From: a virus
Taxonomy: Duplodnaviria > Caudoviricetes
Strand: one strand, 5' to 3'
IMG/VR virus record: IMGVR_UViG_3300037585_001476
Span: 1-28,091 of that record
Length of the DNA stretch: 28,091 bases
The notes beneath the pieces are model-generated. The model was not told the origin of the DNA and did not search any database. It saw nothing but the letters and a program-made list of their open reading frames with translations. Both the position numbers and the translations under genes were made by a program. This document shows, one piece after another, positions 5,165 to 28,091 of this stretch. Positions within the stretch are counted from its first letter, which is position 1, and every line of letters begins with the position of its first letter.

Positions 5165-8100
5165 ATGACATTTAAAAAAGTTACTTTTGATCTTACAGAC
5201 CCTAAAGATCAAACCACCTCTCAAACAGCAGACCTTGGATACGCTTCTAATGTAGACAGACGAAGCATACTTAAAGATCCAAGATTTATTAAAGACCTTC
5301 AAGACAGATACGACCCGTTACAGCAACTGTCAGACGAAGACCTTATCAACAAATTTTATTCAGACGAGAACTGGGCTCAGTTAAATACTATCGGTGCTGT
5401 CGGCAGAATGATGGAAGGTGGTGGAGACACCGACGAAGAGAAGATGAGAAACGCCAGACTAACAACAGTCTGGGACAACCTGCCTAACTTCTATCAAGAA
5501 GGTGGTCGTGGTTGGGGTGCTGTGCCAGACATAGCAAAGTCTGTGTTGGCAGACCCAATTAACTTAATTGGTGGTATTGCGGCTAAAGGTGTTTCCCAAG
5601 CGGCAATGAGAACAACAACTGCCCTTGGAAGATCTGCTCCAGTTAAATCATTTCTTAAAGGTGTTACTACTGGTGCGGCAACTGAGGGTGCAATATCTGG
5701 TGGGCAAGAAGCTCTTATCAACGTAAGTGAACAAGGATACAGACAAGACATTGGACTCCAACAGGAGTTTGACTGGAATCAATTCGCTCAAGCAACAGCA
5801 TTCGGAACTGCTCTTGGTGGTGCTGTCGGTGGTGCAATCGGTATTCCGTCAGCTATTTCAGGTGTCAGACAAGGAGCTAGAGAGGCTCAAACTTTATCAA
5901 GGTCAGACCTCTCTCCAGAAGAAATAGCGTCTTTAACTAATAGAAGAGCTTCAGAAGAGATAAACTTTTTGAATCAAAAAGAATCGGGATTAATACTCCC
6001 TGCTCCAAAAACAGATGAACCCAAAATTGGAGCAGAAGCAGAAGTTGAAGTAGAACCTGTTCCCAAGACATCGACAGACGAGATACTTGGAGAGTTGGAC
6101 GGACAGCAACCTGTATTTCAACAGCAGTTAAACGAAGCAAGGATAGCACAAGAGGCAATAGTAGAAGACGGCTTAGAAAATACTACTTTGGGTAGAGAAA
6201 TTGCGAAGGATGTATCACGAGCAGAGGTTAATAAAGAAATAGTAGAGCGTCTGAAGAATGAGCAAGACCAGATTTCAGCCCTGATGCAGTCCAATAAAGT
6301 TGCTGACCAAAAGATGGCTAAAGCTATGCAAGCCGCTTTGGATGCAGATGTGGCACATGCAAGAGTTGCGGCTAAGAAAGGCGACGCTCTAACTTCCGAA
6401 GCTATTCTTACTTCAGCAAAGAAGCGAGCAAAGAAGATAGATGAACAGGCTAAGAAAGCCTCTGCTAAAAAGGCGAGAGGAAAAGGAAAAGGTTCGGCCT
6501 CAACTACAACCGACGAGGCTGAATTGGCGACGGAGGATGGATCTGGCCCTTCCTCCACAGACGATTCCTCCGTCACCACTGAAGATATAGAGGCTGATGA
6601 AGCAAGAGTTGCTGATCTCAGGGAAAATAATCCTGAAGGCTACAAGAAAGAGATGACACCAGTTGTCAATACCTTGATTTCAGGCGAACCAGACGCAAGC
6701 AAAATAAAAAGAAAATTAAAAAAAGCAAAAACATCAGATGATGTTGATAAAATTATTGACGAGGTGTCTGAGAGATTACAGACAAAGGTAGAAGACCCAG
6801 ATAAAGCATCTGCACCAAAACTTCCTGAAGTTAATTGGGGAGGTAAAGCTGGTCAAGGTGGACAGAAGAGTGTTGACGAACAACTTGCGAAGGCAGGGTT
6901 TACCCCAGAGCAAGCCGATCAGTGGCTGAAAGAAAACATTGCCAATGGAAACATTGCAACGAATGAGAAGGGGGTAATCAAACTTGGAAAACAAGGTGCT
7001 ACAAAGACTGTCAGACAACTTCTAAAAGATACTGAAGCTCCAGCAGTTAAGGTCGAAGGAGAGCCTTCGGTAGCCGAAGAAATAGCAAAAATAGCGGAAG
7101 ACAATAGGAAAGTCACAGACCCAGAAAAGATGGCTGAGATTATAAAGGCTCAAGCAAAACGAAATTTACCTAGCAAGAGCCAAGAGGAGATAGACTCAGT
7201 TTATGACACACTCATGTCTGGCGGTGAGAAGCAGAGACTGGCAGACGATCAGACTATATTGAATGCCAAATTTAAAGGTGATGAAGAAAAGGAATTTATC
7301 AAAGCAGTTAGAGATCTACAAAAGAACGAAGCTGATTACAAAAAAGATTTAACTGAAGAGGAGCTTGCAGATTACGAACCTATGAGCATGGAGCAAATGA
7401 AGCTCAATGCAAAGAAGGTTGTCCTAGCTCAGAGGGCTGAGAAAGGACTTAAAAGCCCAAGGAATGTTACGAATGCTATTGAGAGAGCATCTATTCTTGA
7501 AGGGGCTGGTAGAACTGAAAGCGGTAAAATCCAATCATTTCTAAAATGGGACTCAAAGCGTGTTGGTTTAGGTTCAAAAGAGCAGACGTTTGTTGGCAAT
7601 AGAATGAATGACATTGGCTCTGCCCTTGCGGAAGCTACTAGACGTAAAAATTCAAAGGGAGAGAATGTAGAAACATTAAGAAAGAAACTTGAGAGACTTA
7701 GAAGCCCGAAGAAAATAGAAGAAGTAGAACAAGAAATAGCTAGGATTGAGTCTGAAAGTCTTCTTGTTCCTTTTCAAGCTGATAAATCTACACCCAATGT
7801 CATCAAAGAAATTACGGAAGGCCCGAATAAAGGCAGAGTTGATTTCAGGCACACTGCTAAAAAAGGAGAAATTCTTTACGCCAACGGACGGGATGGAAAG
7901 ATATACGCAGACGAAGCTACAGCAGAATTAGTTAGTCAGAAAAAACCTAGTTTAGTGTCAGAGGTTCTTGAGAAAAACCCAGCAGTTAAAGGTAATAAAC
8001 TTTTATTCATAAAGAAAAAGGATGGCACAGGTAAGTTGCCATACCGTCTGGCTTCTAAAAAGCAAGCAGAAACAGGCGAAGGTATTAAGTCCCTGCTCGG

Positions 8101-11100
8101 AAAACAAAACCCAGATGATTGGGAAGTTCGTTACATAGAAGAAAGCAAAGTCCCTACTGGCTCTAGGTCTAATATAAATGCTTTGGCAAAACTTTGGGAT
8201 GAAGCAGGGGAAGAGCCAAGTGCTTCAGACGGACAAGGAGTTATACGTTTCGTTGGTGACGAGACAGGAAATGGTATGGCTACTCCCGTAGAGAACCTTG
8301 CCGAAAGCCCTCTCGATGTATCTAAGTTAAACGAACAACAGCGTACAGCTTTTAACAGAAGGAACACCAGACAGGCTCTAGGTGATCCTACACTCAGCGA
8401 CGTTCAACATGCCATAGATAGTATTGATAACGGTGAATTTCCCACTAAAGGAAATAAGACAGAACTCGCAATATTAATCAGCGATCTTGAGCAACTCTAC
8501 TCCATTCAAAGAGACTTAATTCCAGGGGGTATTGTTAGAAAAGCTAGTGATAGAGAAAAGATAATCAACAAGATTGAAAAAATTATGCAAGATGCCGACC
8601 CAGAGGTTGCGGTAGTTGTGAAAAACACACTGGCTTTTATTGGAGGAGATCCTCTTAAAGCTCCAAGAATTGTGACGACAGAAGGAGGAGATCAAGGTTG
8701 GAGTTATGCCAATGGGAACATTAGAATGGGTGACAGAGAAAAGGTATCTGCTGACCATACTTTTTTCCATGCAGTAGCCCAATGGTCTTATGACAATATC
8801 TTAACACCAGAAGACCGAATGCTTTTCTGGAATGCTTTAAGTAGAGACATTGCAACAAAAGGAAAAGCAAAGGCAAAGATACCTGTGTTAGACAGGTATG
8901 CAGAAACTGAGACAGGCTTGGCACGAAAGATATGGGCAGACCAGTTTGCATCTTGGGCTTTTGACAACCGTTCTCACGGCATATTTAGCGATCATAAAAC
9001 TAATGTCTACAATGAACATTACTGGCAAAAAATGTCTAAGATCCAAAGGGCATCTGTGGACAGGTATTTTTCTGGAGCGAACATTGCCCCAGAACTCGAA
9101 GGTTTGTTTTCGAAAGTTCTTCCAGAACAAGTCAGAAGCATAAAAAAGATTGGTGTAATTTCGGACGATCCGAAGACAAAGAAGGGAATGGTAGTAAAGG
9201 GATTTCAGGTTAGGCTTGAAATGGCAGTTGATGAAATACAACGAGCTATCAGGGTTTATCAAGACCCTGAAGGCAACCCAGAAGAATTAGTAAATGCGGC
9301 AAGAGGTTTTAGATCTCTTCTAGCTTCCGCTTTCCCAAATAGAGATGTCGGCTCTAAATCTACTGCAATGAAGAATACACTAAGCTGGCTACGTCCTTTA
9401 GATAAAGTAGCAAGAGGTAGGTTTGCAGACTTAAATTATATTATGGCTGAGAAAGGGGGTCTTGTTCAGCAACTCAGAGCAAAACAAGATGAGCTTGGTC
9501 AAATAAGAGACGACGCTTTACAAGAGGCTGATAGTCCTGAAGCTATCGAGTTGAAAGCAAAATATATTGAAGAACTGTTCGAGCATGGACACGCAGATCT
9601 GCTTAAAGGTGGATCAAACGCCAGACCATACGGCGGTGAACAGACCAGTTACACAACTTTAAATGAACTTATTCGGTTAATGCGTGAGTATTCAGACATT
9701 GAATATAAAAAGGCAGAAGGTGCATCGAGAGCAGACGAGTTTGTAAATTTAAGAACGGGCATGGTATCCAGAAAGCCTTCTTTTGAAATTAGAACAAAAG
9801 AAGGTAGAAAAATTAAAGTTGCTAACAGAGCCGCAGACAACGACGCTAATAAAGTAATAAAAACCCCTGCAAATAAACGTAAGTCTGCGACAAATAAAAA
9901 GCCAAGGATGGATAATGTAACTGAGGCAACTCAAAGATCCTATGGCGATAAGTCTATCCCAGAACTGCGTGAAATCTACAAGAAGAATAAAGACACACAA
10001 CTTGGCGATCAGGTTGCTTGGTTAATGTGGCAAAAGAAGAACGCCGAACCAGAGCCTGAATACTTCACTCAAATTCACTATGAACAAAGTGCAGATGACA
10101 TACAGGTGATGAAGGAGGAAGGCCCAGAAGCAGGTTCTCCAGAAGCTATTGCAGAAGATAAGGCAATTCAAGAGGAGCTTGCTGATATTAAAGCAAAAAA
10201 TGATGGTGGAAGATATAAAGAGTTTTATGACGAAGAAGCATCTGTTCTATTTATCGTAGAGTTACCTGATAATTTAAAAGCACAAGCGAAAAGAGAATGG
10301 GGTAAAACTAAATCAATCAAGGATATAGACACTTGGTTAGCTAAGTACAGGAACATCTGGGATCAACAACAAGCGTCCCCCCCGATGGATCAAGCGTCTC
10401 CCCCAATGGATCTAGCCCCAAGGAGTATGTGGAAGACCACAAAGGAACTCAGGAAGTTACAAAAGAATGAGCTTGTAGAACTGTGGAAGAATGGTGCTGA
10501 GACAGGTTTTTTCACTCATGGAAATATTGAGTGGCCTATACATGCCGTCGAGTGGGAAATCCATCGACGAGGTATCACTGATACATACAAGAAGCTAGAC
10601 AAGCCTGTTCCAAAATATCTCAGACAACGCATTAGAACAGAACTTAGTAATGGTGTTGGTATTGCTACTGAAGATGGCATCCCACCTTCAGCACCTATTT
10701 CCACAAAGACAATCCTTTCATATATGTCCCATCGTGATCCTGAAGTTCAGTACACCATGAGAACCATGTTGCATCGTATGATGAACTTAATGGGCAAGAA
10801 CGTAGAGAATACTCTTGGCGAAACTAATGTGATGGATGGGTCTGATATTGCTCGTCTGGCAAAGGTAGACCCTGCTGGAATGAAAAATGTTTCTGTCGAT
10901 TTTAGAAGCGATACATTTAATAAATTAAGATCAGACCTCAGAAAGATTTCTATTGGTCTAACCAAAGGAAACTCTAACCCATTTGATGCCGTGCATGAGA
11001 TTGGTCATACAATGGTCAGGGGTGGAATGCTACCTAAAGAAGAGATGGACGCTGTCATTGAGTTATACAGGGCGGCTGACGACACTATCAAATCAAATGT

Positions 11101-14100
11101 AGAAAAGTCTTACGGGAAAAAATATCCAGACATGACACCAGCCCAGCTTGAAGAAGTTCTAGCAGAGGAGTGGTTTGCTGAAGGTATGGCTAACTATCTT
11201 GGTCAACGGGTTATGCGTGGCGATGTTATGAAAAGCATGTTGTCTGGCAGTATGGATAATATCCGTCTTAAAAATTCATTCGAGAGAGCCATTGATAGAA
11301 TGGTCGAGTATATCTCCTACGTTGTTAATGGATTGATTGGACGCAAAGATATCAAGCAACAGTTCAGACGACTAACAATCTACGGAGATATGCTTGAGGC
11401 ATCTAATAAATCTCCACTGGCTCGTGTTGATGTTAAAGAACCTGCCGTATCTCCCACTTATGTTACTGCATACGCACACGATATTATACGACAGAGCAAG
11501 GACTCTAAGAAAGCGGCGATCAGTAAATACACAGCCAATGGTAAGCATTCGGTTAATGATGATGGAACGCCAACCATTTACTATCATGGCACACCTAATG
11601 GAGCACCATTCAAAGACTCTCAGGTCGTGATGCGTCAGGGTGGCGGTATGATGGGGTCTGGTATTTATATTTCTCCAAGCAGTAGAGCAGTCGAAGGTAC
11701 TTATGCAAGGCGACCAACCCAATCGGCTGTGAGAAGAATGATTGATGATGGAGACTTTGACGAAAAAACAAAAGATGATCTCATTTGGCAGAATGAAAGA
11801 CTGCATTCAGACAGAGAAAAAATTGCATCTGAAAGAAGGAGATTGGCAGACGTACAGAATGAGGTTGAAACTCATAACGATACTGTTGAGAGATTGAGAA
11901 ATGCTCTGGAAGAAGATGACCTAGCAGATTTGAATGTAGAACTAAGATCTATTACACAAAGACGAAAGCAGATCCAAGACAATTTGGATTACCTTCTATA
12001 TTCAGAGAAGATGTCAATGAAGATTCTGGATGATGCTGGCTTAAATTTCGAACCCACCGTCCTTCCTCTCATAACAAGAATGAAGAACACTTTCGATCTC
12101 GGTAAAAATATCTGGAGAGTGGGTGATGACGGCAATGGAGTAAATTATTCGAATACTCACAACGTAGGTAGAGAGGATACGAATGCGGCCTTGAATGCAA
12201 TCATGCGAGTGACAAACAATTTCGAAGGCGGCAACATGGCAGACTTCCAGAAAGCTGTCGAAGAAAACTTTGGGGCTTCAAAGACGGGAGTTGCTGGGCA
12301 AGTAGCATATAATTCCTACATTAAGACAATAATGAGAGGAGATAGTTCTCTCACTGAAGAGCAAGCTAAAGAGATATTCAGGGAAGCTCTTGAAGATGCT
12401 GGGTATGACAGTATGAGAGCACCACATAGAAACAGAATTAACAGAGACAAGGTATCTGATAGTGACGATTATCGTGCTGGCGAAGAGGTGGATTATGATG
12501 CCTTTGTGATATTCAATCCAGAGAATGTGAAGCATGTTAACGCAGAGTTCTTTGATGCCGAAGACGCTCGTCTGTATTACAGGGACTTTGAAGGGTCTGC
12601 TAAAGGTTTCAATGGCGGAGCGGCAATGGCTATGGCTGACGGACAGACGAGTAAGCTAGATACCACGAATACGGTAGACATGCTACAGGCGGTTGAAGAC
12701 GAAGGCGTATCTCCCCCAATGGTAGACGCTATGTCTAGCATTATAAGACAAAGAGACTTAACCCCTGTTCAAGAGCAAGCAGTAAGAAAACAAGGGCCAT
12801 TCGCATGGCTTCAAGCTCAGTCAACACGCATGGAATCAATGGGTATGAACTGGTTAGGTGGCTGGTACAAGCAACATTTCCCAGACCAGCACCAGACTTT
12901 TGCATCTAAATATATGCCTATTCATAATATGTTGCGTGGTCTTCCAGGGGCAGACGGAAAGGTGCGGGCGTGGGCTCGGTCTGCGTCTGGCTCGGTCTGG
13001 CAAAAACAGCCCCAGGCATACAGGAAAATTGTTTCTGCACTTAGGCACGGGGCAGACAGCAGACAGGCAAAAGTTCTGACACCATCTGAAAGAGTAGTCT
13101 TTGATAAGATTAAAGATGAGTTCGCTAGAGAACACGCACGGATGAATGAAGCTGGTATGCACTATGTTGGTTGGAGAAAGAACTATATACCACAGGTTTG
13201 GAGCAGAGATAAGATTCAAAAGAATAGGGAAGAGTTCCTTGAAGGTATGATGGAGTATTATTTTCAGGAGCAAATTCAACTCCTTTCTGGTACTAGCAAT
13301 ATCTTGCAGAAAGACGACGCAAGAAAATTTGCTGAGAAAGTTTACCAGAGCCTGACCAGAGAGAGTGTAGATGGCGTTCAAGTACCAGAAAGTCCTAAGT
13401 CTCCTATCAGAGGATCTACTAAAAATCCTCAAGCAGAAAGCATAGACTTCAACAGACTGATCGAGTTGGAGAAATATCCTAGAGCTATGGAGATTATGGA
13501 GAAATTTCTTGAGGACGACCTTGAGTTCATGCTCGTTAAATACTTTGAAGGATCAACAAGAAGAATACTTCACACAAAGAAGTTTGGATTAAACTCTCAC
13601 GGCGTTGATGACTATCTTTATACAACTGAAAACGGAGCGAGGGGTATAGCTAAACTCCTATCAACTAATAAAGTATTTAATAAAGACTTTAGATCTGTAA
13701 CGACTGACGGTGTCCAAGAAGGAACACTAAGGTCTGAGGTATCTATGCCTTTTACTGGCAAGGATCAGGACGCTATTAAGTTTTCTGAAGAACTGGTGGA
13801 GGTTGCCAATACACAGGGCATACCAGCCGCAAGAGAAATGCTTAACTCCATCGCAATTAGGACACCTAGCGGTCAGATTGATAAGACATATACAGCCAGA
13901 GTTGAAGCGATACTTGGTGCATTGGAAGACCATAAGGGTAATAAGACACTATTGGAGAATGACAATGCTAAGTTTATTGAGAATGCTATGCGAGTGTCTA
14001 GGAAAGATAGTCTCAATGACTTTGGTGGTAAGGCAGGTCTGAGAGTTTCTCGTGGCCTAAGAAGTTTTAACAATGTAACCCTGCTTGGCTTTACTACGCT

Positions 14101-15310
14101 AACATCATTGGGCGACCTTGTTCTCCCAATCGTAAGGTCTGGCTCTGTGACAGACTGGATGAAAGCCGTTAAGACACTGGCTCTTGATCCAGATTATAAG
14201 AGAGCTTTGTCTGAAGTTGGTGTGGCAATGGAGAACATTACGCATGAGCGTATGTTAAATATGTATGGTGCGGTAGATAGTAAATTATCTAATGCCTTCT
14301 TCAACGCTACAATGCTAACGCCTTGGACAGACATGAACCGACAGATCGCAGGTGCATTGGCTCACCAGACATTCATTACGCACCAGAAGAAAGCGTTAAG
14401 ATCTTATGTTAAAGGCAAGCCAGTTAGTGAACAGCCTAGAGAATATAAACTAGCCTACAGATACATGAAGAACTTTGGCCTCGAAGATTATCTTGAGGGT
14501 GGATCAAAAAGTAGAGTTAGTCTAAGCGATAGATCTCTTCTTGGCACAGATGACTCTTTACGCAAAGCAATGATAAGGTTTGCAGACGAGAGTATCTTCC
14601 AGCCTAACGCAAACGATGCTCCTCTATTTGCACAGACACCACTGGGAGCTTTAGCGTTCCAGCTTAAATCATTCCCGTTAATGATGAGCCGTCTGGCAGG
14701 TCATGTGATTAGAGAAGCACAGATTGGCAAGCTACTCAAAGGAGACGCAAGCGAGTCAAACATAAAGCCCCTACTCTACTTCCTTTCACTCGGCCCAACT
14801 TTCGGTATGGGTGCATTGGCAGTGAAAGACATTGTGCAAATGCGAGGTGGCGAGGACGAGCAATCACCACAGTTGAGAGTTAGAAATGCTCTGAAGACAG
14901 CAGGGTATGATGAAAAAATTCACGGTAACGAAGTTGATTTCTTAGGCTGGTATCTTGAGGGAATGTTGCAAATGGGTGGCGTTGGTCTGCTCGGTGACAT
15001 CTTACACTCAGCGGTTACACAGGCAGACAATGGTTCTTATGGACAGACAAGGTTCTTGCAGACATTAGGTGGCCCAAGTGTTGGCCTGATTACAGCAGGT
15101 CTGTCTGTACTCGGCGGCGGCATGGACTCCGCATTCGGTTCATCAGAAAGTAATTCAAAAGAGAGAACTGCCGTTAGGGAAATCGCAACCCGTATTCCAG
15201 TTGTTGGAGGTGTCAAACGAGCAAGAGAAGGAATAGTTAACTCCGTCGCAGGTGAACCCACAGGAAATAATTCGTCTGGCTGGGGTAGCTGGGGAGGTAA
15301 ATGGAGTTGA
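5165..15310 (+). CDS. Giant polyvalent internal virion protein, 3381 aa (zincin-like peptidase, ART-like domain, ejection-protein-like C-terminus)
   Basis: HEIGH at 10994 plus EEWFAE at 11165; YHGT (11582), GIYIS (11660), GYDSM (12401) and VIFNPENVK motifs; Gly/Ala hydrophobic segments near both ends; NYIPQVW and FQLKSFP motifs in the C-terminal part. Confidence 0.8.
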   Translation: MTFKKVTFDLTDPKDQTTSQTADLGYASNVDRRSILKDPRFIKDLQDRYDPLQQLSDEDLINKFYSDENWAQLNTIGAVGRMMEGGGDTDEEKMRNARLTTVWDNLPNFYQEGGRGWGAVPDIAKSVLADPINLIGGIAAKGVSQAAMRTTTALGRSAPVKSFLKGVTTGAATEGAISGGQEALINVSEQGYRQDIGLQQEFDWNQFAQATAFGTALGGAVGGAIGIPSAISGVRQGAREAQTLSRSDLSPEEIASLTNRRASEEINFLNQKESGLILPAPKTDEPKIGAEAEVEVEPVPKTSTDEILGELDGQQPVFQQQLNEARIAQEAIVEDGLENTTLGREIAKDVSRAEVNKEIVERLKNEQDQISALMQSNKVADQKMAKAMQAALDADVAHARVAAKKGDALTSEAILTSAKKRAKKIDEQAKKASAKKARGKGKGSASTTTDEAELATEDGSGPSSTDDSSVTTEDIEADEARVADLRENNPEGYKKEMTPVVNTLISGEPDASKIKRKLKKAKTSDDVDKIIDEVSERLQTKVEDPDKASAPKLPEVNWGGKAGQGGQKSVDEQLAKAGFTPEQADQWLKENIANGNIATNEKGVIKLGKQGATKTVRQLLKDTEAPAVKVEGEPSVAEEIAKIAEDNRKVTDPEKMAEIIKAQAKRNLPSKSQEEIDSVYDTLMSGGEKQRLADDQTILNAKFKGDEEKEFIKAVRDLQKNEADYKKDLTEEELADYEPMSMEQMKLNAKKVVLAQRAEKGLKSPRNVTNAIERASILEGAGRTESGKIQSFLKWDSKRVGLGSKEQTFVGNRMNDIGSALAEATRRKNSKGENVETLRKKLERLRSPKKIEEVEQEIARIESESLLVPFQADKSTPNVIKEITEGPNKGRVDFRHTAKKGEILYANGRDGKIYADEATAELVSQKKPSLVSEVLEKNPAVKGNKLLFIKKKDGTGKLPYRLASKKQAETGEGIKSLLGKQNPDDWEVRYIEESKVPTGSRSNINALAKLWDEAGEEPSASDGQGVIRFVGDETGNGMATPVENLAESPLDVSKLNEQQRTAFNRRNTRQALGDPTLSDVQHAIDSIDNGEFPTKGNKTELAILISDLEQLYSIQRDLIPGGIVRKASDREKIINKIEKIMQDADPEVAVVVKNTLAFIGGDPLKAPRIVTTEGGDQGWSYANGNIRMGDREKVSADHTFFHAVAQWSYDNILTPEDRMLFWNALSRDIATKGKAKAKIPVLDRYAETETGLARKIWADQFASWAFDNRSHGIFSDHKTNVYNEHYWQKMSKIQRASVDRYFSGANIAPELEGLFSKVLPEQVRSIKKIGVISDDPKTKKGMVVKGFQVRLEMAVDEIQRAIRVYQDPEGNPEELVNAARGFRSLLASAFPNRDVGSKSTAMKNTLSWLRPLDKVARGRFADLNYIMAEKGGLVQQLRAKQDELGQIRDDALQEADSPEAIELKAKYIEELFEHGHADLLKGGSNARPYGGEQTSYTTLNELIRLMREYSDIEYKKAEGASRADEFVNLRTGMVSRKPSFEIRTKEGRKIKVANRAADNDANKVIKTPANKRKSATNKKPRMDNVTEATQRSYGDKSIPELREIYKKNKDTQLGDQVAWLMWQKKNAEPEPEYFTQIHYEQSADDIQVMKEEGPEAGSPEAIAEDKAIQEELADIKAKNDGGRYKEFYDEEASVLFIVELPDNLKAQAKREWGKTKSIKDIDTWLAKYRNIWDQQQASPPMDQASPPMDLAPRSMWKTTKELRKLQKNELVELWKNGAETGFFTHGNIEWPIHAVEWEIHRRGITDTYKKLDKPVPKYLRQRIRTELSNGVGIATEDGIPPSAPISTKTILSYMSHRDPEVQYTMRTMLHRMMNLMGKNVENTLGETNVMDGSDIARLAKVDPAGMKNVSVDFRSDTFNKLRSDLRKISIGLTKGNSNPFDAVHEIGHTMVRGGMLPKEEMDAVIELYRAADDTIKSNVEKSYGKKYPDMTPAQLEEVLAEEWFAEGMANYLGQRVMRGDVMKSMLSGSMDNIRLKNSFERAIDRMVEYISYVVNGLIGRKDIKQQFRRLTIYGDMLEASNKSPLARVDVKEPAVSPTYVTAYAHDIIRQSKDSKKAAISKYTANGKHSVNDDGTPTIYYHGTPNGAPFKDSQVVMRQGGGMMGSGIYISPSSRAVEGTYARRPTQSAVRRMIDDGDFDEKTKDDLIWQNERLHSDREKIASERRRLADVQNEVETHNDTVERLRNALEEDDLADLNVELRSITQRRKQIQDNLDYLLYSEKMSMKILDDAGLNFEPTVLPLITRMKNTFDLGKNIWRVGDDGNGVNYSNTHNVGREDTNAALNAIMRVTNNFEGGNMADFQKAVEENFGASKTGVAGQVAYNSYIKTIMRGDSSLTEEQAKEIFREALEDAGYDSMRAPHRNRINRDKVSDSDDYRAGEEVDYDAFVIFNPENVKHVNAEFFDAEDARLYYRDFEGSAKGFNGGAAMAMADGQTSKLDTTNTVDMLQAVEDEGVSPPMVDAMSSIIRQRDLTPVQEQAVRKQGPFAWLQAQSTRMESMGMNWLGGWYKQHFPDQHQTFASKYMPIHNMLRGLPGADGKVRAWARSASGSVWQKQPQAYRKIVSALRHGADSRQAKVLTPSERVVFDKIKDEFAREHARMNEAGMHYVGWRKNYIPQVWSRDKIQKNREEFLEGMMEYYFQEQIQLLSGTSNILQKDDARKFAEKVYQSLTRESVDGVQVPESPKSPIRGSTKNPQAESIDFNRLIELEKYPRAMEIMEKFLEDDLEFMLVKYFEGSTRRILHTKKFGLNSHGVDDYLYTTENGARGIAKLLSTNKVFNKDFRSVTTDGVQEGTLRSEVSMPFTGKDQDAIKFSEELVEVANTQGIPAAREMLNSIAIRTPSGQIDKTYTARVEAILGALEDHKGNKTLLENDNAKFIENAMRVSRKDSLNDFGGKAGLRVSRGLRSFNNVTLLGFTTLTSLGDLVLPIVRSGSVTDWMKAVKTLALDPDYKRALSEVGVAMENITHERMLNMYGAVDSKLSNAFFNATMLTPWTDMNRQIAGALAHQTFITHQKKALRSYVKGKPVSEQPREYKLAYRYMKNFGLEDYLEGGSKSRVSLSDRSLLGTDDSLRKAMIRFADESIFQPNANDAPLFAQTPLGALAFQLKSFPLMMSRLAGHVIREAQIGKLLKGDASESNIKPLLYFLSLGPTFGMGALAVKDIVQMRGGEDEQSPQLRVRNALKTAGYDEKIHGNEVDFLGWYLEGMLQMGGVGLLGDILHSAVTQADNGSYGQTRFLQTLGGPSVGLITAGLSVLGGGMDSAFGSSESNSKERTAVREIATRIPVVGGVKRAREGIVNSVAGEPTGNNSSGWGSWGGKWS
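10370..10411 (+). repeat. 21-bp in-frame tandem duplication (QASPPMD x2)
   Basis: CAAGCGTCCCCCCCGATGGAT then CAAGCGTCTCCCCCAATGGAT, 19/21 identical. Confidence 0.9.
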
Positions 15311-25256: not shown

Positions 25257-25501
25257 CAGATAACCCCCCAATGTTTGAGGTAGATCTTAGCCTTATCGCC
25301 AGATGTCCATCCCTCTTTGGTAGAGTTCTGAACAATCCGACAATGTTGTAACCACTTACAGTAATTACTAACTGCCGAACCAGATATTCCGACCTGCTTA
25401 GATATGTCACTCAGACGTACCTTCTGCCACTGATCCTTCTGTGCCGTCATCCACATGATTGTCAGTGCTATCTTCATTTCCATCGGCTTTATTCTGTGCA
25501 T
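25256..25501 (-). CDS. Winged-HTH DNA-binding protein
   Basis: RLSDISKQVGISGSAVSNYCKWL HTH pattern. Confidence 0.65.
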   Translation of the reverse strand: MHRIKPMEMKIALTIMWMTAQKDQWQKVRLSDISKQVGISGSAVSNYCKWLQHCRIVQNSTKEGWTSGDKAKIYLKHWGVI

Positions 25502-25709
25502 CGGATTCGAACCTCATTACGTTATTGATTACCCATCTGGGACTTGAGACGCATGACGACAAACTTGTTACCAAGTCTGCCGCACCATCCCTATTCTTTA
25601 CGTTGGCATTGAAACCAAGTTCAACACCAACGAGTTTGTTAGTCTCGTTGTCGATGACGGCAAATAGATTGCCGACATCAATAGCTTTTTTGTTATTCTG
25701 ATCTGTCAA
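25407..25709 (-). CDS. Hypothetical protein
   Basis: GGAGGA SD 6 nt before TTG 25709. Confidence 0.6.
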   Translation of the reverse strand: MTDQNNKKAIDVGNLFAVIDNETNKLVGVELGFNANVKNRDGAADLVTSLSSCVSSPRWVINNVMRFESDAQNKADGNEDSTDNHVDDGTEGSVAEGTSE

Positions 25710-25920
25710 TTTTGATCCTCCTGCTATAATCCACACCAAACATTTTAGCGATTTCTCGTTCAGCTTTGTGTGATGTTATTTGTACTTCTGTTAGCAGGTC
25801 TACAATATCGTTCATGTGAACTTGTGTCGTCTTGTTATGAACTTTTAATTCAGATCTCACTGTCTCAATTAATCTCTCGCACAGTCTGTCAACTGCCTCT
25901 GCAAATTTTATATCACGCAT
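25693..25920 (-). CDS. Hypothetical helical protein, 75 aa
   Basis: GAGGT SD; overlaps neighbours. Confidence 0.65.
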   Translation of the reverse strand: MRDIKFAEAVDRLCERLIETVRSELKVHNKTTQVHMNDIVDLLTEVQITSHKAEREIAKMFGVDYSRRIKIDRSE

Positions 25921-26143
25921 GAGCTACCTCGCAAGGTGGGCCAGTTATCACGTTGTTTGAAACATTGACCCATCTATACACAAATGTAGGAACAGTATAT
26001 TTCAACCCCTTCTGAGTCCTTATTCGAAACTTAAATCCGCAGAAGTGGTATGTTACCCAACCGCCTTTTGATCTTCCGTTACCAAGAGAGTGTCTGGCTA
26101 TCAGCTTTCTACCCACTCGGTTCTTATCGTTTATGTTAATCAT
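25913..26143 (-). CDS. Basic hypothetical protein, 76 aa
   Basis: GGAGGA SD 7 nt before ATG 26143; the longer 26278 start runs through promoter DNA. Confidence 0.6.
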   Translation of the reverse strand: MININDKNRVGRKLIARHSLGNGRSKGGWVTYHFCGFKFRIRTQKGLKYTVPTFVYRWVNVSNNVITGPPCEVAHA

Positions 26144-26187
26144 ATTCCTATCCTCCATATATGACCATTTTACTAAGGTTGTCATTG

Positions 26188-26217
26188 AGATTACTCGGAT
26201 TCCCTCGAAAGTGTCAA
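26188..26217 (-). promoter_or_regulatory. Sigma70-like promoter of the leftward small-gene operon
   Basis: TTGACA-N18-TAATCT; -35 lies in the palindrome GTGTCA-A-TGACAC (26211-26223). Confidence 0.6.
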
Positions 26218-26272
26218 TGACACCACTTCTTTGGGTGGTGTTTGTCCCACATTTGGTGAGACGGCACACCAT

Positions 26273-26292
26273 AGACACAACGTATTGTGTCT
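26273..26292. promoter_or_regulatory. Operator-like palindrome, copy 1
   Basis: AGACACAA-CGTA-TTGTGTCT; shares ACACAA-N4-TTGTGT with 26373-26390. Confidence 0.6.
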
Positions 26293-26303
26293 TTAGGTGT
26301 CTG

Positions 26304-27587
26304 TTATGGTGGTTTTTCGTCGGGTAGGTGTGCTTCTACTTCCTTGGTAAGGGCATCCACCGTACTCTTGTCAACACAATTCGTTGTGTTTATGTTGCTT
26401 GTATGCTGGCGTAACTCAGTGGTAGAGTACTGCTTTGGTAAAGCAGAAGTCGAAGGTTCAATTCCTTCCGTCAGCACCACATCCTTCTGGTCAAGATTTG
26501 GGACAGTACTATCTGTTGACGTATCCAAGTGTTCGATAACACTCTTTAGGCTACTCGGAGCGAGGTGAGCATACCGCATAACCATCTCCAAACTTGCGTG
26601 TCCTAACAACTCTTTCAACTCGTCAAGACCCACTCCCTTCTGCCGTAATTGACTGGCAAACGTGTGTCTAGCATCATGGGGTTTGAAGTTTTCGATCCCT
26701 GCTTTCTTGCAAGCCTCACTCCAGAAGTGATAGAAGTTTGTGTTGTCTGACTTCCTCCCATCATTATTAACTCCTGACCTTTTCCACGGAGAGCCCAATG
26801 GATTTGGGAAGACAAGACCACCATTACACCTACTCTCAAGGATTTGTCTGAGTGATGAGACGATTGGAACTTTCCTCCAAGTCATGTGTCTCTTGCGTCC
26901 CTTCCTTGAATATAACATGACCTCATCTCCGATGACATGTTCATTTGTCAGACTGAACGCATTACCCAAACGAGCACCAGTAAAGAAGAGAAAGGAAACA
27001 AGATCTTTAATTGTATCATCGCAACAATTAATCAACCGATCCCTCTCCTTCACAGTTAACCATCTTAACCTACCCTCACCTTCGGGTGGCTTGACAAGAT
27101 TAACTTCTCTCCCATTCACATCTGTAAAGATTATGAATGGGAAACCTCTCGACTTTGAATGATTAATACTGGCTATGAGTACAGCCATTTCTTTTCGGAT
27201 TGAGGTAGGCTTTGTCCCCTTCCTTTCGAAATGGCTATACACTTTTTTAATATCAAGATCGCTTACCTTCATCTTTCCAAAGGCATCATCAAAAGCATTC
27301 AACACCCACAGAGAGGACTTAGATAAGAACCCCTCTGGTCTGCCAAGATATCTCTTGTTCATCTCGGCAACGGTGTCGTCGCTACGCACCTTACTCTTTA
27401 CCTCATCTGTCTGGCTAAAAATTTCAGCCTCAATTTTAGATAACAAATTAGATGCGAATCTTTTTTGATTGAGAGTAAACTTGGTACTGCGTTTAACTCT
27501 AACACTCTTACCATCGGCTCTAGTCATAGTTCCAATGGCGTACCAGACGTTTCCTCTTAGGCTTAGATTAAGTCCCATCTCCTCCAT
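26304..27587 (-). CDS. int: Tyrosine recombinase/integrase
   Basis: TGAR, HDARHTFAS, LLGH, MRYAH give R-H-R-H-Y; N-terminal RGNVWY...RVKRST arm-binding-like segment. Confidence 0.93.
   Translation of the reverse strand: MEEMGLNLSLRGNVWYAIGTMTRADGKSVRVKRSTKFTLNQKRFASNLLSKIEAEIFSQTDEVKSKVRSDDTVAEMNKRYLGRPEGFLSKSSLWVLNAFDDAFGKMKVSDLDIKKVYSHFERKGTKPTSIRKEMAVLIASINHSKSRGFPFIIFTDVNGREVNLVKPPEGEGRLRWLTVKERDRLINCCDDTIKDLVSFLFFTGARLGNAFSLTNEHVIGDEVMLYSRKGRKRHMTWRKVPIVSSLRQILESRCNGGLVFPNPLGSPWKRSGVNNDGRKSDNTNFYHFWSEACKKAGIENFKPHDARHTFASQLRQKGVGLDELKELLGHASLEMVMRYAHLAPSSLKSVIEHLDTSTDSTVPNLDQKDVVLTEGIEPSTSALPKQYSTTELRQHTSNINTTNCVDKSTVDALTKEVEAHLPDEKPP
26368..26396 (+). promoter_or_regulatory. Promoter of tRNA-Thr with operator-like palindrome (copy 2) in the spacer
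   Basis: TTGTCA-N17-TATGTT ending 8 nt before the tRNA; AACACAA-TTCG-TTGTGTT at 26373-26390. Confidence 0.65.
26405..26479 (+). tRNA. tRNA-Thr(GGT)
   Basis: Acceptor GCTGGCG/CGTCAGC-A-CCA; D arm ACTC/GAGT; anticodon arm CTGCT-TTGGTAA-AGCAG; T arm GAAGG-TTCAATT-CCTTC. Confidence 0.95.
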
Positions 27588-28005
27588 CTCCTATTATTAG
27601 ATGATCGAAAGCCTTACCATCTTCCTTGTCATAATTGGCATCCCAATCCTTTGGCAAACCTTTCGACAACAAACGATAACTCTCGTCATCTATTTCCTTG
27701 AGTGCATTGATCGTCTTCAGAATTACTTGAGCCCTCATCTGCACCCCAAATTTTCTAGCGATTGTACGGACATGTACCTTCGCCGTATTCTCAGATATCT
27801 GTAACCTTTTACCTATCTCCACATTAGTAGCTGATCGGCAAATCATTTGGATAACCCCATGTTGTTTAGTTGTGAAACCTGCAAGCACCACCTCTGGTCT
27901 GTCGTCTGCCTCAATGGGTGGGCTAACTTGTCTTGTTGCAAGTCCATTGTTTATTCTCTCGATCAGGTTATCTATCTTCCACTCTATCCTATCTAGTTGT
28001 TTCAT
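27568..28005 (-). CDS. LuxR/NarL-type HTH regulator without receiver domain
   Basis: FTTKQ...TNVEIGKRLQISENTAKVHVRTIARKFGV..R; AGGAG SD; overlaps the int start. Confidence 0.88.
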   Translation of the reverse strand: MKQLDRIEWKIDNLIERINNGLATRQVSPPIEADDRPEVVLAGFTTKQHGVIQMICRSATNVEIGKRLQISENTAKVHVRTIARKFGVQMRAQVILKTINALKEIDDESYRLLSKGLPKDWDANYDKEDGKAFDHLIIGDGGDGT

Positions 28006-28091
28006 TATATCTCACTCCTAAATAGGCGACGTAGATTTTTTCCGAAAGCGTACTTTCCATATAGACTTCCCTTGTTTCTTTTTAGATTATC
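28005..28091 (-). CDS. 3' end of an upstream gene (truncated)
   Basis: Open frame DNLKRNKG...RSEI ending in TAA overlapping the LuxR ATG. Confidence 0.45.
   Translation of the reverse strand, partial: DNLKRNKGSLYGKYAFGKNLRRLFRSEI

Follow-up and report, generated by a model that had tools for sequence, protein, structure and literature searches.

A predicted attachment site and a whole tRNA-Thr gene inside the integrase gene of a CRP-810-type marine phage

An integrase gene open through a tRNA gene

Why does a phage integrase gene stay open through the antisense strand of a complete tRNA gene, and what would integration do to the enzyme it encodes? The question is raised by a single virus record of 28,091 bases, a 28-kb fragment that is 48% complete (the window, meaning this whole stretch of DNA). 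Its tyrosine integrase gene runs for 88 codons past the predicted catalytic tyrosine, stop-free through the antisense of a tRNA-Thr(GGT) and of a promoter-like site; the coordinates that a first-pass annotation had given for this read-through hold. The features concerned are:

27587-26304, minus strand: tyrosine integrase gene int, 427 aa, CRP-810-type, Pfam Phage_integrase (PF00589)
26571-26573, minus strand: codon of the predicted catalytic Tyr339 (MRYAHL), invariant in the Int alignment
26304-26570, minus strand: 88-codon C-terminal extension of int after Tyr339; residues 346-427 predicted disordered
26405-26479, plus strand: whole tRNA-Thr(GGT) with CCA, 75 nt, antisense to int residues 370-395
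26368-26396, plus strand: promoter-like site TTGTCA-N17-TATGTT, a sequence match, between the predicted core (below) and the tRNA
27568-28005, minus strand: LuxR-family HTH gene (PF00196), overlapping the start of int, as in CRP-810

A Pfam search placed the PF00589 Phage_integrase domain at residues 176-344 (E 1e-24). Predicted-structure comparison matched the fold model to lambda Int and XerA, and the AlphaFold2 model carries, by fold match, a lambda-like N-terminal three-strand-plus-helix unit. The best phage match in a protein search was CRP-810 Int (37.8%). Residues 346-427 were modelled with pLDDT <50 (AlphaFold2, 17-sequence alignment), on which ground a folded domain in the tail was rejected, and a protein search with the tail alone gave matches confined to the 5 closest clusters. 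No excisionase was recognisable among the four ORFs downstream of int. Elsewhere in the window, a 3381-aa ORF (5165-15310, plus strand) and its 898-aa and 469-aa neighbours, without PHROG match, are probably internal virion proteins.

The tRNA was called by ARAGORN, scored 73.1 bits against Rfam RF00005 (cut-off 29) and folds into a cloverleaf (z -3.2). Across 19 distinct homologous phage tRNAs, 1 of 399 stem cells was non-pairing, with several pair types per position; between the window and a 95%-identical relative (L001), the anticodon stem is rewritten. These alignments indicate selection on the structure of the phage tRNA-Thr, whose stem changes compensate one another and in doing so alter residues of Int. 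That the antisense of such a tRNA is open is in itself unremarkable, at least 10 codons being open in all 162 tRNA-Thr 5' halves considered; what goes beyond chance, judging from the sequences, is its conservation among relatives and not the openness itself.

Relationship to the integrating phage CRP-810

The window phage shares with Roseobacter phage CRP-810 (OR671924) a primase-polymerase (64% identity), a PD-(D/E)XK nuclease (57%) and an AAA ATPase (64%). The same three core genes are 86-99% identical to those of close uncultured relatives, two of them not being found in relative G003. Three relatives of the window phage are listed as subgroup V in Table S5 of PMC11288001, with host predictions that score only 0.22-0.29, and to one subgroup V record the nuclease is 96%, the AAA ATPase 88% and the primase-polymerase 98% identical. 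Judged on these three family core genes, the window phage is of the CRP-810 type.

CRP-810 is described as integrating in the middle of a tRNA-Thr via a 13-bp core, verified by PCR, with the core downstream of the phage tRNA (PMC11288001). We infer from the wording of that paper and from the match length to the commonest cellular anticodon arm that this 13-bp core is a bare copy. Two of the four published primers bracket the interval without telling tRNA from core; the other two are absent from the phage locus and presumably host-side. Both phages have the order LuxR, int, antisense tRNA-Thr(GGT), bare core, and the core sequence is identical. Unlike the window's integrase, CRP-810 Int stops 27 residues after the tyrosine, before the tRNA, and 24 nt separate core from tRNA instead of 54. 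A tRNA replacement, an overlap with int and a C-terminal change do not figure in the available text of the CRP-810 paper (PMC11288001). The possibility that the window is a prophage junction, or an element inserted in a phage tRNA, was rejected: phage genes lie on both sides, and the order in CRP-810 is the same.

A bare anticodon-arm copy as the predicted core

The first-pass annotation had overlooked a second copy of the anticodon arm, which together with its surroundings defines the predicted attachment site:

26342-26353, plus strand: predicted attP core, bare tRNA-Thr anticodon-arm copy, 12 bp, over codons L413-T414-K415 of int
26304-26342, minus strand: last 12 int codons (EVEAHLPDEKPP) and stop, predicted to be swapped for xxLYH or xxLYP plus stop
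26499-26505, minus strand: candidate arm-type Int site beyond the tRNA, at a distance of 155 nt from the core
26243-26249 and 26262-26268, minus strand: two candidate arm-type sites across the core from the tRNA, inverted pair plus motif

The predicted core lies within int, 12 residues before its end and 54 nt upstream of the tRNA; it holds the 7-nt anticodon loop (26344-26350), and its 11-mer has a single exact match in the window. Its flanks are non-tRNA sequence, with D arm and acceptor stem absent to its left. The proposal of an attP inside int thus finds a concrete counterpart at codons 413-415, and the core falls within int in all 18 read-through loci surveyed below; the isotype of the core, together with CRP-810, also agrees with the proposed target, a host tRNA-Thr gene.

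The annotation had, in addition, set the crossover in the whole tRNA, with the long tail swapped and tRNAs at both junctions. The tRNA does carry the same 7-nt loop (26434-26440) and lies between candidate arm sites. Against this stand the published position of the CRP-810 core, the missing D arm and acceptor stem left of the core, and three integrated-type proteins from relatives that keep the tRNA-coded peptide and differ only past L-T-K. Moreover, all 11 loci of the window's subclade have a tRNA whose anticodon stem is without the core's CC..GG flanks, a lack that may keep the tRNA from acting as an Int substrate; stop-first loci keep these flanks in 10 of 12. We regard a crossover in the tRNA as highly improbable. 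By analogy with CRP-810 and from the integrated-type proteins of relatives, on which this assignment rests and not on the window phage itself, crossover most likely occurs in the separate 12-bp bare core at 26342-26353.

A candidate arm-type motif is present in 24 of 28 loci at a distance of 115-195 nt from the core beyond the tRNA, often as a pair with 11-bp spacing. It also occurs across the core in 23 of 28, against a background of 1.5 per kb; the motif was picked by eye from the same loci that were then counted. With the motif on either side of the core, one arm of attP probably contains the tRNA.

Promoter-like sites numbered 7 in 25500-28091, compared with 4.8 +/- 2.7 in shuffles, a result that is weak alone. 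The site TTGTCA-N17-TATGTT itself had p=0.012 when the 60 nt upstream of the tRNA were shuffled. Within the window's subclade, each of the 9 distinct spacers has a similar site (8-10 of 12 matches), and for 3 of the 9 p<0.05; six more distant read-through spacers reached promoter scores of 5-8 within the 60 nt scanned. In two loci (L009, L107) the core lies between the best -35 match and the best -10 match; integration there would cut the phage tRNA promoter and leave the tRNA to a host promoter. Two palindromes ACACAA-N4-TTGTGT (26275-26290 and 26374-26389, 99 bp apart) flank the core of the window, one of them filling the spacer of the promoter-like site; they are possible operator or accessory-protein sites.

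Read-through frame across the family

A bare core accompanied the whole tRNA wherever we looked among relatives fetched by integrase similarity alone: behind int, a second loop copy (TTACCAA) followed the tRNA in 14 of 14 non-redundant loci with a whole tRNA-Thr. In 36 int loci without a whole tRNA, a bare core was found in none; ten had a CC/GG-flanked Thr loop copy, all with the tRNA's 3' half, which is the canonical attP that rebuilds the host gene. Adding pattern scans, which fixed distance ranges and not frame, gave 30 distinct loci, many of them near copies (L108, with a stop before the tRNA, was not counted).

Every one of the 18 read-through loci has its core in the L-T-K frame, with spacers of 48, 54, 57, 66, 78 or 90 nt between core and tRNA and Tyr-to-tRNA distances of 94, 97 or 100, all of which keep the frame. 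In the 12 stop-first loci, the spacers measure 15, 23, 24 or 34 nt and the core occurs in all three frames. Stops in the int frame number 0 in 570 codons, as against 21 in 585 and 48 in 570 in the other two frames, a count that is partly circular. Closer to the window, a stop soon after ...VIEHL had been named as the sign of an incidental read-through; in fact 85 of 94 proteins from the 12 closest clusters read through to the core, 2 have an integrated-type end and 7 other ends (one longer read-through, five fragments, and P0136 stopping at 358 aa).

A quick tree, leaving out 8 loci with <150 residues, placed 19 of 21 read-through rows in one clade (SH-aLRT 92), which also includes three long-tailed integrases without tRNA; L118 and P0050 fall outside it on long branches. 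Because the read-through loci mostly belong to a single clade, their frame counts cannot be treated as independent; one origin, or two, would be enough. The distant integrases L118, P0050 and P0224 are nevertheless in the same frame. Exceptions are P0223, which crosses a tRNA and ends without L-T-K, and L004 and L008, where the core keeps one flank of two.

What is conserved in the tail, according to these alignments, is its frame and openness. The pN/pS ratio was 0.53-0.58 in the tail, 0.27 in the Int core and 0.50 in the tRNA-coded stretch, and codon third-position changes were in slight excess (103 vs 77 and 74; p=0.039, from related pairs), so the residues are weakly constrained. The tail conservation that the annotation wished to see among homologues is therefore present in frame and weak in residues. 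An open, disordered and weakly constrained tail fits a flexible linker that bears a switchable end.

These data bear on a simpler account, with the same att geometry and tRNA replacement, in which the read-through is a passenger of one ancestral stop loss, the region stays open because tRNA, promoter and Int sites constrain it anyway, and the swap is without effect. CRP-810 integrates with its short Int, and 12 of 30 loci are built likewise, so the tail is not needed for integration; the predicted disorder, a pN/pS near the tRNA-segment baseline and the single clade agree with it too, as does phage Fionnbharth, whose published tRNA also lies antisense in the 3' end of a gene, an overlap given no role in the available account (PMC10865867). 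On the other side are the six spacer lengths and three Tyr-to-tRNA distances, all in frame, the partly circular stop counts, the shared frame of the three distant integrases, and a sister clade that keeps the tail after tRNA loss. We consider this account somewhat unlikely.

That sister clade (L012, L018, L026; P0026, P0030, P0039, P0222) has a tail of 98-99 residues ending ...HPxxYxPDK; inspection by eye shows other bases in the 7 positions that CC and GG enclose where the core would be, and the clade has possibly been retargeted to another site. Other att layouts occur in the same integrase family (L019, L035, L037, L029, L032, L042, L041): Thr 3' halves running either way, Ser halves of the 3' or the 5' kind, and, within an Int tail of 75 residues, a Gly 5' half. 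L027 and L045 have an antisense tRNA-Thr 3' half with a second loop copy 70 nt further and are possibly intermediate or decayed. In the viral or metagenome loci L116, L119 and L176, a whole tRNA-Thr and core occur with an integrase across the core and facing it.

Alternatively, the overlap might serve antisense control of int, whose mRNA would be lowered by transcripts that enter it from the tRNA promoter and, after integration, from the host promoter. The geometry would allow it, with no terminator-like site on the plus strand from the tRNA to 27170. The 12 stop-first loci share this geometry, however, so antisense control explains neither the read-through nor the fixed frame, and we give it very little credence.

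Integrated-type integrase ends

If the swap predicted from the bare core takes place, its product can be read from host tRNA genes. In the L-T-K frame, the antisense of tRNA-Thr(GGT) 5' halves encodes xxLY[HPL] and reaches a stop 8 codons in, across 162 matches that include phage tRNAs; the next frame is the one open for 10 codons or more in all 162, and in the third frame the same 5' halves reach a stop within 9 codons in 34 of 162. Three proteins end in this way. P0008 ends LTKDALYH, where its cluster-mate P0122 ends LTKDDDRHPKNTKPP; P0137 ends LTKGVLYP, where 10 of 11 other cluster members end LTKDKGGAK; and P0050 ends LTKGTLYP. In all three, which are protein records only, the phage-tRNA-coded peptide is intact and the change begins only after L-T-K. 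We infer that they are integrated forms with a new C-terminus and an intact catalytic domain. Unrelated integrases (such as P0266) also end LY[HP], at tRNA-Gly, and several free-phage Int ends also finish in Pro. Two further proteins (P0123, P0169) have ends reading LLYTS..., which may be library-adapter read-through at contig ends.

Could the LY[HP] proteins be free phage variants that carry a tRNA 5' half behind the core, their Int end unchanged on integration and a second tRNA rebuilt by it? Such a layout is published for pelagiphage HTVC011P (10.1101/410191), 5' halves, though from other tRNAs, occur in the relatives L032 and L041, and P0008, P0137 and P0050 are known as protein records alone. 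Yet cluster-mates at about 90% identity or more have an ordinary post-core end, and a 5' half behind the core was seen in 0 of 30 DNA loci. The idea is inapplicable to the window, and crossover would still lie at L-T-K; we judge it very improbable. On the preferred reading, that of integrated copies, the signature [LI]T[KN]xxLY[HP] at an integrase end would mark integrated copies in protein databases, a useful handle as marine lysogens are rarely assembled.

Searches for junctions and hosts

The first-pass annotation had taken integration junctions outside the tRNA as evidence against it. The evidence above does point outside the tRNA, to the 12-bp core; as for junction DNA, no CRP-810-type prophage junction emerged from the viral scans or from a metagenome scan (53 of 64 parts, 118 loci). 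The 108 distinct pattern matches examined were mostly chance second motifs, tandem tRNAs and other elements. Contigs of 4 runs had no joint or loose end at the core, contigs being prone to drop rare variants, and a host search in genome contigs gave a single, uninformative 653-bp phage-like contig from an Opitutales MAG. Some metagenome contigs hold tandem tRNA-Thr(GGT) copies; in such hosts the need for a phage tRNA would lapse.

Among the matches, twelve cellular-looking contigs (L133, L136, L141, L165, L199, L201, L206, L113, L138, L145, L187 and L234) have a tRNA-Thr(GGT) 5' half, a short spacer and a whole tRNA-Thr(GGT), and no integrase was found within 2.5 kb. They resemble junctions at which other elements have used this replacement layout. 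In the same match class, L182, L196, L222 and L225 are tandem whole tRNAs.

A proposed course of integration

We propose that this probably temperate phage would integrate into the anticodon loop of a host tRNA-Thr(GGT) gene via the 12-bp core, splitting the host gene, and that the phage tRNA-Thr 54 nt from the core would replace it. The int-side junction would then consist of the host promoter and 5' half, the phage spacer and the whole phage tRNA. The host 3' half, left at the other junction, would be without a partner, so one intact tRNA is expected, on the int side only, and not the tRNAs at both junctions that had been suggested. This att geometry with tRNA replacement is very probable.

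We hold the accompanying tail swap to be just as probable. Integrated Int would shrink from 427 to 420 residues with its catalytic part whole: the last 12 residues would give way to five read off the host tRNA, and translation would stop at a TGA formed by the antisense D-stem, leaving the end xxLYH or xxLYP. The earlier suggestion that integration rewrites the Int C-terminus is thus retained for the last 12 residues, not for the 88-residue tail. That the swap alters the level or activity of Int has about an even chance.

The reason for the kept frame that we favour is that the hydrophobic His/Pro end on a disordered tail would act as a Lon-type degron. Recombination itself would then switch Int from stable to short-lived, and with prophage-made Int short-lived the prophage would stay put; the host-rescuing tRNA would sit antisense in the same 270 bases as the degron-writing site. 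Lon degrons described in PMC11986505 end ...GLYH (Smg) and ...YLYH (SulA), terminal Pro was third-best in a reporter screen there, and a terminal-His Lon degron works in Caulobacter (PMC10665427). The P0008 end ...ALYH fits the Smg and SulA ends, not the strict x-L/I-L/I/V-H, and P0137 and P0050 end in Pro. Since the LY[HP]-stop is forced by the universal D arm, and appears at tRNA-Gly as well (P0266), the likeness to a degron may be coincidence. The degron remains a tentative and rather unlikely idea; the whole explanation, from attP to this favoured hypothesis, we consider moderately probable.

If the end is a degron, an off switch would come built into any integrase that crosses an anticodon-loop core in the same frame, and such prophages would have a cheap way of controlling excision. 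Whatever its function, one stretch of 270 bp serves as coding sequence, tRNA gene, promoter-like site and predicted recombination site.

Comparison with known systems

Both components are already published. In the literature searched, mostly outside subscription journals, we found no case in which int encloses a core together with a replacement tRNA, nor one in which integration gives an integrase a degron. The locus joins two published tricks, tRNA-dependent lysogeny and an attP inside int, in a globally distributed marine phage family.

Replacement of a tRNA is also reported from Alphaproteobacteria, in two papers on Sinorhizobium. Precedents for tRNA-dependent lysogeny include the actinobacteriophages Fionnbharth (K4), cluster L and Gaia (PMC10865867) and the pelagiphages HTVC019P, HTVC025P and HTVC119P (10.1101/410191), as described there. 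The window shows three of the four features of such systems: a tyrosine integrase, a bare 12-bp core without a tRNA half, and a phage tRNA-Thr(GGT). By analogy, it would work in the same way; the fourth feature would be a need for the phage tRNA if lysogens are to survive, where the host gene is single and essential. In those precedents, according to the available accounts, attP sits between genes, and the tRNA either overlaps some other gene or is found elsewhere, whereas here int contains both core and tRNA, with the tRNA placed between the core and candidate arm sites, and Int would be rewritten by integration.

In placing attP within int, the locus resembles the SSV1 and pTN3 suicidal integrases, which have an att site in int and a tRNA target (PMC8371274). 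An SSV-type suicidal integrase was rejected for the window: the Pfam domain (176-344) and Tyr339 lie upstream of the core at residue 413. The locus also resembles the Myxococcus phages Mx8 and Mx9, where attP lies in int and integration makes a new 3' end with the enzyme active (PMC6070905, PMC4383910). Unlike the window, they come without a whole replacement tRNA in the available description (PMC6070905), and in the window the change would be confined to the last 12 residues of a disordered tail. In mycobacteriophage BPs, recombination at an attP within a gene alters a C-terminal proteolysis tag, and the level of Int sets directionality (PMC3694055). There, integration removes the tag from the repressor; in the window phage it would, hypothetically, add one to the integrase.
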